Shown one piece after another: positions 1 through 3,000 of a DNA stretch of 21,358 bases. Made by a program: the position numbers. The stretch's first letter is position 1, and each line of letters opens with the position of its first letter. Origin of the DNA: Escherichia coli. GTDB taxonomy: Bacteria; Pseudomonadota; Gammaproteobacteria; Enterobacterales; Enterobacteriaceae. Where the stretch lies: NCBI RefSeq assembly GCF_003334765.1, contig NZ_QOWT01000048.1, one strand, 5' to 3'.

Positions 1-3000
1 GGCAATGGAACAAATTACCGCCCATTGTGAGTCATATTCGCCCTGACTTTCCAGAACCATACGAATCGCCCTATGACGGACTTCGGGGGAAAACGAGTAT
101 TTTTAGTCATCCTGTTTACCTCTTTCTCAGGGAGTTTAGTCTCCAGGATTCCCGGGCAGTTCATTTTCCGGATCGTATTTTATTAAAGCATCACGAATAT
201 TAACAATGTAAATCAGAGCGTTATCTGGCGACATCCAGGCATTGGGGGGTAGGTTTGCCCTCATGGGGCCCTTTGGTGAGCCCTACCGGTGTCACACCCG
301 AAGAGACAATCACCTCTGGAACCTCATTGAGATGCTGGCAAAAGCGCTGGAACCATAATTCCAGATTCATACCATTGGCGAGAATCAGTTATGCCCCCTG
401 CGCACGTTTAATATCACCAGAGGTGGGCTAAGACTCATGAATTTCTGCACCCGGCTTGGTTATGGATGAGACTTCTGCATCATCTTCAGCCACTTTTTTG
501 GCCATATCCGCGATGATGGTAAATGTTGTTATGGATATGATCTGCACAGTATTCAGCTTCCAGAATCTGTACACTTTTCCACTCACACAGCTTTCTCAAA
601 ATACTGCCTGTTGCTCTACGCTTCTCTCTGTAGAACACTTGTCTTCGGTATTTTGGCGCAAAAACTATGTGATATTTACAGTTCCATCGTGTGTGCGCTA
701 AGCTCTTTTCGTTCCCCATTGGGACCCCCTTTTGATTTCTTGTTTGACACTTGCAGTTGCCAGACCGCAAGGTGTTTTAACAAATCAAAAGGGGTTTTAA
801 TAACTGGCCTCAAAGCTGAAAGCTTTCCGGAACCCCCAGCCTAGCTGGGGGTTTTCTGTGCACAAACAGGCTCAGGACGGCGGGAATGATCCCGCCTCCT
901 GCTCGATCGCCCAAAACACGGCTTACCGAGGCTATTCCTTGTCCGAAGATAACAAGGACACATACATTATCCATTTGCGATTGCGCATACTCCACTGCTT
1001 CCCTGAGGATCTCAACTTCCATGGTTAATGAGATGGTCCCCACCACCCTGTGAGCTGTACCCTAGTAGAGTGTTTTTCTTTCATGGAGAAGACCATCATG
1101 CAAAACATTACGCTTATTGGTATAGATCTTGGCAAGCATTCCTTTCACATTCACTGCCAAGATAAGTCAGGCAAGGTATTGCTGCGTAAAAGTTTACCCG
1201 TACCAAACTTATTGAGTTTCTGGCAGGCTGTGCCTCGTCTACCGTTGTGATGGAAGCCTGCGCCGGAGCTCATTTTATGGCTCGCCGGATTGCTGATTTA
1301 GGTCATGAAGCAAAATTGATTTCTCCGCAGTTCGTTCGCCCTTTTGTTAAGAGCAACAAGAACGATTTTGTCGATGCAGAAGCCATATGCGAAGCGGCAT
1401 CTCGTCCCTCCATGCGATTTGTGCAACCACGAACAGAAGCTCAGCAGGCCATGCGGGCGCTTCACCGGGTCAGGGAATCATTGGTCAGTGATAAAGTCAA
1501 AACGACCAATCAGATGCATGCTTTTTTGCTGGAATTTGGCATCAGTATGCCGACAGGAGTCGCAGTGGTAAAACGACTTTCAACAGTACTTGCAGAGAAC
1601 GAACTTCCTCCCTATCTGGCGCAGTTACTGATGCGCTTACATGCCCATTATATTTACCTTGTCGGACAGATCACCGAGCTTGAAATCGCACTGGAGCAGG
1701 AACTGAGTCGTGATGAGGTAGGACAACGTCTTCAGACAATACCCGGTATTGGTCCGATAACCGCCAGCGTACTGTCATCGCAGCTGGGAGACGGTAAACA
1801 ATATAGCTGCAGTCGGGACTTTGCTGCTTCAACCGGTCTGGTACCCCGGCAGTACAGCACAGGTGGTAAAAATACCCTTTTAGGGATAAGTAAACGTGGA
1901 GATAAAAATCTGCGACGGTTACTCGTTCAGTGCGCAAGATCCTTTATTCAGAGAATCGAGAATCAGTCAGGAAGGTTGGCGGATTGGGTCAGGGCGTTGT
2001 TGGCAAGAAAACACTCCAGCGTAGTATGTTGCGCACTGGCCAACAAATTAGCCCGGATAGCGTGGGCAATCACAACACAGCAGACTGTGTTCGAAAGGTA
2101 ACGATGGCGCCAGTCTGGCTGGCAGGTTAATCATGAATTAAAGTAGTTCCCAATCTGGTTTTGCGAAGACTGATTATTGATGACATGAACGGCATATCGG
2201 CCTGATGAAAAGCCTCAGCAAGAAAATGGCTCACTGAAGCCGGATGGTTTTTTGGGCTCATCAGGTGTGGAACTCATCGAGGCGCGGGCATCCATGCCCA
2301 TAATGACGCCGGATAGATTTAGGCAAGCCAACATCAATCAAAATCAGTGTTGCAAAAATGGTGGGGACCATAGATTCTTGCCCAGTAAACGCTGAACCTG
2401 ATTAATCTGCTTTATCGCAGCGGCCAGTTCAGAAGCAGGAACAACGTCTTCACCAGCAGCAACAGCATTGAGAGTTCCTTCCAGGTATTGTTTCTTCCAC
2501 TTAAACAACTGGCAGGGCTGAATTCCATGTAAACGAGCCATCCGGGCCAGCATCATTCCTGGCTCATTAAAGGCCATTTCAGTTATCAGCTCTTTCATAC
2601 CCGGCTTACGTGCTTGATAAGTATAAGTGAGCTGAAACACACGGTGGCAGTCACGGTAGCGAAATCTGTCACGGCCTTTAGGGTTCTGACCATGGCGGTA
2701 AACCTGAGCTGACTGACAACGGGGACAATGAATATTAACGCTGGACATGAGATAACCTCAAAAGCCCGTATTATACATCAGATTCAACTAATTAGAGGCA
2801 TCACCAATATGTTTATAGCAATCTCAAATAATGATATAAAACATATTTTCATTGGCTTTTAAAATAAGTCAAGAATTGTTTTGGTGTTATGCCAAAATGT
2901 TTTACAAAAAGCCTAATGAAATATGATGTACTGGAAAATCCTATCATATTAGATATCTGTGATATCTGATATGAGTTATCAAGCAACAGCAATGCTGCTT

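Follow-up and report, generated by a model that had tools for sequence, protein, structure and literature searches.

A probable vertically inherited frameshift pseudogene of an IS1111-type transposase beside aggR on Escherichia coli pAA plasmids

A stretch of 21,358 nucleotides from Escherichia coli (contig NZ_QOWT01000048.1 of RefSeq assembly GCF_003334765.1), here called the window, carries near the virulence regulator gene aggR a transposase gene of the IS110 family of insertion sequences (IS) that does not read through in one frame. The initial annotation described this gene as split by a single-base frameshift in an A-run, with two frames offset by one base; it left open whether the lesion is a genuine mutation, making the element non-autonomous, or a homopolymer sequencing error, and it proposed a comparison with intact homologues. 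Is a base missing from the DNA or from the assembly only, and can the element still move? According to the allele comparison given below, the window copy is very probably a frameshifted, inactivated and non-autonomous transposase pseudogene of IS1111 type that is inherited on pAA plasmids. The parts of the gene are:

1098 to 1250, plus strand: truncated N-terminal open reading frame (ORF) of 50 amino acids; residues 1-31 are native and include the catalytic D10 (mapped to D11 of IS621), followed by 19 out-of-frame residues and TGA.
1188 to 1191, plus strand: A4 run, site of the one-base deletion; A5 in intact copies and A6 in copies from Escherichia albertii, according to the allele census.
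1190 to 2101, plus strand: rest of the transposase frame in the -1 frame, native residues 32-334, to which the Pfam and NCBIfam matches of the intact protein extend.

The A-run at 1188-1191 reads AAAA inside the string CGTAAAAGTTT (1185-1195), and positions 1182-1199 read CTG CGT AAA AGT TTA CCC. Translation from ATG 1098 (codon starts at 0 modulo 3) yields MQNITLIGIDLGKHSFHIHCQDKSGKVLLRK, native up to codon 31, then the out-of-frame SLPVPNLLSFWQAVPRLPL up to the stop codon TGA at 1248-1250. The main frame (codon starts at 2 modulo 3) is closed upstream by TAA 1187-1189, reads KFTRTKLIEFLAG from 1190 onwards and is open throughout until TAA 2099-2101; its first in-frame starts are GTG 1247 and ATG 1250 (residues 51 and 52). 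Intact copies of the same element carry AAAAA, with the codons CGT AAA AAG TTT and the peptide CGTAAAAAGTTT, and in an alignment of 14 copies the missing A is the sole ORF-breaking difference of the window copy. Insertion of one A restores a protein of 334 amino acids without any difference to WP_033805166.1 and with 1-2 differences to the other intact alleles. Both frame halves match one protein, so the two ORFs are not chance neighbours. The offset frames of the initial annotation are thereby confirmed, including their coordinates, string and peptide fragments, and the proposed comparison gives A5 and a single 334-residue ORF in the intact homologues; the IS1111 type of the element, its RNA guidance and its location in an orfA gene of the IS3 family were not part of that description.

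Near-identical copies with a single ORF of 1005 bp occur on two chromosomes and on large plasmids whose sources include cattle and food. Their alleles (WP_001179712.1, WP_033805166.1, WP_057697732.1 and WP_044187490.1) are all single ORFs of 334 residues. The intact protein possesses an N-terminal, RuvC-like DEDD_Tnp_IS110 domain (PF01548, residues 7-146, E 9e-20) and a C-terminal Transposase_20 domain (PF02371, residues 210-289, E 8e-23), and reaches 343.9 bits against NCBIfam NF033542, "IS110 family RNA-guided transposase" (cut-off 140). Among the best 120 database homologues, 110 are single ORFs of 334 amino acids; K31 is present in all 120, K32 and F33 each in 115. The Lys-Lys codons are in frame in the outgroups as well, as AAA AAA in IS5075/IS4321 and as AAG AAA in a Salmonella element, which makes the in-frame state ancestral and A4 derived.

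In an alignment to IS621 (PDB 8WT6), D10, E53, D90 and D93 correspond to the DEDD residues D11, E60, D102 and D105, and T255-G256 to S241-G242. Mutation of any of D11, E60, D102, D105 or S241 abolished recombination by IS621 (PMC11208158). All these positions are combined in one polypeptide in the intact alleles; in the window copy D10 is left on the 50-residue peptide, E53, D90, D93 and T255 are found in the downstream frame, and native residues 32-51 are absent from both possible products. With its catalytic residues split between frames the window gene is a pseudogene of the IS110 family. As a complete DEDD/RuvC catalytic domain is missing from both products, no active transposase is expected and the copy should be non-autonomous, as the initial annotation had suggested for the case of a true mutation; the loss of activity is inferred from homology. 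The stop codon of the 50-residue ORF overlaps ATG 1250 (Met52) of the main frame in the sequence TGATG at 1248-1252. Re-initiation at this overlap might yield an N-terminally truncated protein of 283 amino acids, lacking D10 and part of the RuvC fold.

The run was examined in all 5,426 complete RefSeq genomes of E. coli with probes of 81 and 82 nucleotides centred on it. Matches were found in 63 records, one per genome, 44 of them with exactly A4 and 19 with exactly A5. PLSDB, whose records overlap with those of the complete genomes, contains 28 A4, 10 A5 and 7 A6 records, all 10 A5 records being annotated as intact. The A4 records of the complete genomes are plasmids throughout. The 19 A5 records lie elsewhere and are all annotated as intact genes of 334 residues; no A5 copy was found in the 44 complete genomes that bear A4, nor beside aggR anywhere in this census. 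All seven A4 copies inspected for context, including that of the O104:H4 plasmid pAA-EA11, occupy the same place about 475 bp past the 3' end of aggR. Among the A4 records are at least a dozen pAA assemblies of O104:H4, produced in different laboratories, as well as plasmids of pAA type that come from Sweden, the UK, Brazil, Japan and a goose isolate in the US. Besides the deletion, the A4 lineage shares 1657C, 2268T and a T-run in the right flank that is one base shorter. Some of its sub-lineages have decayed further: an additional A is present near 1795 in two Brazilian plasmids, one UK plasmid lacks a C in the left inverted repeat, and ISKpn26 has replaced the left end in O104:H4. In the sibling record pE1246_1 (99.88% identity to the window over 21.3 kb) the PGAP/RefSeq annotation labels exactly 1098-2101 as "frameshifted". 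Hence the orthologues consist of one ORF, a single indel breaks it, and this indel recurs in independent assemblies, as expected for a frameshift pseudogene.

These data bear directly on the possibility that the missing A is a homopolymer error of sequencing or assembly and that the true plasmid has an intact transposase gene. An indel in a homopolymer within an otherwise flawless ORF is what such an error would leave, and the A4 of the window is known from the assembly alone; yet the run is just 4-5 bases long, the same A4 recurs across many laboratories and years, in 44 records of complete genomes and 28 of PLSDB, the allele follows genomic location perfectly in the inspected copies, and the A4 lineage has acquired extra independent lesions. 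The identical 81-nucleotide context reads A5 at other loci (19 records) and A4 beside aggR, so a miscall driven by the context does not explain the difference. An error is therefore extremely improbable, and the choice left by the initial annotation falls to mutation: the frameshift reads as a genuine, vertically inherited mutation of a slowly decaying pseudogene. Several points weigh against such a pseudogene. The window itself is represented by assembled sequence alone, and genomic context was inspected in only seven A4 records. The repaired ORF has no additional amino acid changes, so that the copy may be young or slowly diverging and residual function is compatible with its sequence; the TGATG overlap might allow the truncated protein of 283 residues; and inactivation is deduced from homology.

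A second indel at the same run bears on two functional explanations. Plasmids of E. albertii carry A6 (CGTAAAAAAGTTT), an independent frameshift of the opposite (+1) sign, found as 83-nucleotide matches in seven PLSDB records, pEA25_1 (NZ_CP117616.1) and six others. One explanation is that the full-length transposase is restored at the A-run by transcriptional slippage or by programmed -1 ribosomal frameshifting, in the manner of IS3 and IS1. The compensating ribosomal shift must be -1, since the DNA is one base short, and a -1 shift at AAA (1188-1190) followed by AAG gives exactly LRKKFTR; the lysine tRNA, moreover, is shift-prone. However, a conserved two-ORF layout and a slippery heptamer, the marks of such genes, are both missing: 110 of the 120 homologues and all A5 copies are single ORFs of 334 residues, and U AAA AGU does not conform to X XXY YYZ. 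As read from the sequence, the P-site tRNA would meet UAA after the shift, four A's are far below the run lengths known for transcriptional slippage, and the opposite indel in E. albertii fits random indels rather than a designed signal. Recoding at this run is accordingly about as improbable as a sequencing error. The two independent opposite indels, A4 in pAA and A6 in E. albertii, would also be expected if the run were a reversible, phase-variable switch of transposase expression. Against such a switch, the run is short (five bases when intact), no reversion is seen among the 44 A4 records of the complete genomes, and the lineages of A4 and A6 have gained lesions in their ends and guide region, as dead copies would. 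The intact ORF has four runs of at least five bases, which makes two strikes on one of them weak evidence. Neither a long simple repeat nor ON and OFF lengths within one lineage are found, the run measuring 4-5 nucleotides, and phase variation is most unlikely. The opposite signs of the A4 and A6 indels argue for random replication slippage.

The preferred reading, an inherited loss of one A, suggests the following history, of which the deletion, its distribution, the intact alleles, and the boundaries and target of the element are directly observed. On an ancestral pAA plasmid, a relative of IS5075/IS4321 would have inserted site-specifically into orfA of an IS3-family element situated just 3' of aggR. 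One A would then have been lost from the AAAAA run coding for Lys31-Lys32, and translation from ATG 1098 would since have left the native frame after codon 31 and halted after 50 residues, with the rest of the gene deprived of its native start. The lesion would finally have passed vertically to pAA plasmids worldwide.

What kind of element has been silenced follows from its boundaries (here and below, a caret marks the insertion point or a junction at an element end):

1026 to 2374, plus strand: whole IS1111-type (IS110-family) element, 1349 bp (1350 bp in intact copies), delimited by comparison of occupied and empty sites.
1026 to 1044, plus strand: left end, a 7-nucleotide extension TAATGAG (1026-1032) followed by the subterminal inverted repeat ATGGTCCCCACC (1033-1044), the reverse complement of 2360-2371.
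2350 to 2374, plus strand: right end, with the -35-like TTGCAA (2350-2355), the subterminal inverted repeat GGTGGGGACCAT (2360-2371) and a 3-nucleotide extension AGA.
2375 to 2598, minus strand: right flank, N-terminal part of the interrupted IS3-family orfA (ending in QRLLGKN), in which the adjoining T-run is one T shorter than in all A5 and A6 copies.
905 to 1025, minus strand: left flank, continuation of the same orfA (beginning with TMEVEILREAVEY).

The empty site, CTTCCATGGT^TTTCTTACCC in an intact IS3-family element, sets these boundaries. The target is not duplicated, and one T at the junction is ambiguous. The target site appears to be the orfA sequence CTTCCATGGTTTTCTTGCCCAG, with insertion at GGT^TTT in one orientation, which interrupts the codons of LGKK^TME; copies in at least three flank variants have the same orfA position and orientation. 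Judged by the defining features of the IS1111 family (PMC11187229), the element has subterminal inverted repeats of 12 bp each with short extensions (7 and 3 nucleotides), a downstream non-coding region (NCR) of 258 bp, a transposase of 334 residues (range 330-350) with the motif GL-P----S(t)G as GLVPRQYSTG at 247-256, and a site- and orientation-specific insertion without target duplication. A 2-nucleotide core duplicated at both junctions, as in IS621, was sought and none fits, a single ambiguous T being shared. Databases name the element "IS110 family" only, and relatives of about 79-80% identity "ISSfl8 family" or "IS5075"; the target string was not found in the supplements of the seekRNA paper (PMC11187229).

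Joined ends would form a predicted promoter, TTGCAA-17 nt-GA^TAAT, in a circular intermediate; junction promoters have been reported for ISEc11 (PMC11187229). At window 2375-2376 all copies of the A4 lineage read AGA^TTCTTG and all A5 and A6 copies AGA^TTTCTT. The A4 copies thus lack one T of the flank derived from the target, which breaks the frame of the IS3 orfA and might affect excision. The IS3-family element that serves as landing site is matched in 682 of the 5,426 complete E. coli genomes (for example in NZ_CP027312.1, locus 519-1723). Only 63 records carry the IS1111-type element, hence most potential targets are unoccupied.

The seekRNA of IS1111-family elements is encoded in the downstream NCR (PMC11187229), and the corresponding region of the window element contains the following features:

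2102 to 2359, plus strand: 3' NCR, homologous to that of IS5075/IS4321 from about 2154 on.
2200 to 2266, plus strand: predicted target-binding domain of the guide RNA, with a closing stem 2200-2208/2258-2266.
2218 to 2226, plus strand: predicted guide 1, GCAAGAAAA, equal to the target bottom strand.
2228 to 2241, plus strand: invariant hairpin between the guides, from the alignment.
2244 to 2251, plus strand: predicted guide 2, ATGGTTTT, equal to the target top strand across the insertion point.
2268, plus strand: C to T, specific to the A4 lineage; C in six other aligned sequences, so that a predicted C-G pair becomes U-G.

The NCR alignment consists of a conserved scaffold and exactly two hypervariable blocks, which flank the invariant hairpin. 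In each compared element both blocks match that element's own target:

Window element: target CCATGGT^TTTCTTGCC; block 1 GCAAGAAAA; block 2 ATGGTTTT.
IS5075/IS4321: target TTTATT^TTCCGTTTTCTG in the Tn21 inverted repeat; block 1 AAAACGGAAA; block 2 TATTTTC.
Salmonella element (L018): target CAGGGCT^TTGTTGAC; block 1 CAACAAA; block 2 AGGGCTTT.

A segment pairing with the top strand that comes first, and matches that overlap in the target, have been demonstrated experimentally for ISEc11, ISPa11 and ISKpn4 (PMC11187229); the predicted guide of the window element agrees in silico with this order and overlap. In the RNAalifold model both blocks lie within an internal loop that the stem 2200-2208/2258-2266 closes, and an inner stem contains one compensatory pair; support for this structure is modest, given four distinct sequence groups only. 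Folding of the NCR as a single sequence is not significantly more stable than that of shuffled sequences (z about -1.5), hence the structure is based on the alignment and not on energy. No Rfam bridge RNA or seekRNA family was matched, neither in the whole window at the gathering threshold nor in 1000-2420 at E<=10, where only a chance snoRNA match occurred; the guide RNA is consequently predicted by comparison. Position 2268 is the only difference in the guide region between the window copy and the intact copies. The E. albertii plasmid pEA25_1 differs by G to C in the right inverted repeat (window 2361) and by G to T in predicted guide 2 (window 2247). The 7-mer ATAATGA (2300-2306) matches the junction of the joined ends and was considered as a donor guide, but the match is probably due to chance, as IS5075/IS4321 and L018 have the same ends without this string.

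IS5075 and IS4321, IS1111-family elements that target the 38-bp terminal inverted repeats of Tn21-family transposons, are among the closest known systems. They share a transposase of 334 residues (73% identical), identical terminal extensions (TAATGAG and AGA), the same layout of subterminal inverted repeats, insertion without duplication, and a 3' NCR of about 77% identity (from about 2154) with the same scaffold and hairpin. In contrast, the guide blocks of the window element match the IS3-family orfA site CCATGGT^TTTCTT(G/A)CC and not the Tn21 repeat, the subterminal inverted repeats differ at several positions, and the window copy is frameshifted. ISEc11, also of the IS1111 family and the basis of the seekRNA model (Siddiquee et al. 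2024, PMC11187229), resembles the window element in its downstream NCR, the lack of target duplication, joined ends that would form a promoter, a top-strand-pairing segment 5' of the bottom-strand-pairing one, and overlapping target matches; its target (GTGAAAATACTG) differs, and the likeness sets a published description against an element known in silico. The bridge recombinases IS621 and ISCro4 (IS110 family; solved structures 8WT6 and 9T56) have in common with it the two-domain recombinase with aligned DEDD residues and S/T-G nucleophile loop, and the RNA-guided mechanism, although the match is distant and its score significant for the C-terminal domain only. Furthermore, the guide RNA of IS621 is encoded 5' of the gene and subterminal inverted repeats are lacking, whereas the window element has the IS1111 arrangement. 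ISEc21 (IS110 family) likewise uses IS3-family elements as a specific landing site, a conserved site in their transposase genes (PMC11187229), but its NCR lies upstream and its target is in the DDE region of orfB instead of at LGKK^TME in orfA.

As for mobility, the window copy is predicted to be immobile on its own, and the window contains no other IS110-family gene. A mini-element of ISEc11, composed of its ends with flanks derived from the target, proved mobile once transposase and seekRNA were provided in trans, and circle formation by ISEc11 required that the flanks on both sides be intact (PMC11187229). By analogy, the window copy could be mobilised in trans by an incoming intact copy, because its ends and predicted guide region still look intact; the missing right-flank T and C2268T might interfere. 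The left end is lost or damaged in some descendants (O104:H4, p266917_2_01). In pAA-EA11 (NC_018666.1, O104:H4 2011C-3493, locus 1786-2948) the IS5-like ISKpn26 replaces everything left of window position ~1059, which leaves this copy without a left end as well as without a reading frame. An improbable proposal is that the element, transposase-dead and guide-competent, supplies an orphan guide RNA to co-resident related transposases of the IS1111 family. IS5075/IS4321 suggest themselves as partners, given their 73% identity, the RNA scaffold in common and their great frequency on resistance plasmids; if so, they could mobilise the window copy or be redirected to orfA sites of the IS3 family. 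In a weaker variant of this proposal, indels would recur at the Lys-Lys A-run as at a hotspot and silence such elements time and again, as A4 in pAA and as A6 in E. albertii.

A frameshifted IS transposase within IS-rich scrap near aggR is ordinary and already annotated in RefSeq, and a literature search for aggR, IS110 and pAA yielded one passing mention of single-nucleotide polymorphisms in this transposase gene and nothing else. The present comparison decides between error and mutation, takes a census of the alleles, identifies A6 as an independent event, and defines target and guide in silico. For annotators and for those studying plasmids of enteroaggregative E. coli (EAEC), the IS110-family gene beside aggR can be taken as a true, lineage-marking pseudogene rather than an assembly artefact, which is of little consequence beyond bookkeeping; as the copy cannot move alone, it is unlikely to go on causing rearrangements next to the virulence regulon. 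Descent of pAA plasmids could be traced by the A4 allele, the missing flank T and C2268T, and an IS5075-like element with a predicted guide retargeted to an IS3-family orfA may be of interest for catalogues of bridge RNA and seekRNA specificity.

The surroundings of the element in the window contain further remnants. A chimeric ORF of 134 amino acids (2344-2748, minus strand), a by-product of IS insertions into one another, combines an N-terminus similar to InsA of IS1 with a middle part from the IS3-family orfA (up to QRLLGKN), while its last nine codons extend into the IS1111-type element at the right end. An IS200 remnant at 531-853 (minus strand) comprises a truncated tnpA (531-719, according to the sibling record) and a full-length Rfam match to STnc490 (729-853, minus strand, 140.5 bits), an Hfq-binding RNA from the 5' end of IS200. 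Group II intron sequences at 16228-16514, 9444-9515 and 16559-17911, all on the plus strand, comprise RNA domains (Rfam RF02001, RF01998 and RF00029) and the reverse transcriptase/maturase gene ltrA, for which an internal stop is annotated in the sibling record. Two internal repeats were detected: a stretch of about 254 bp that spans the 5' part of aggR and sequence upstream of it (3412-3664) recurs downstream of aatD (15306-15547) with 85% identity, and an IS fragment of 167 bp (1-167) recurs at 9574-9742 with 95% identity.

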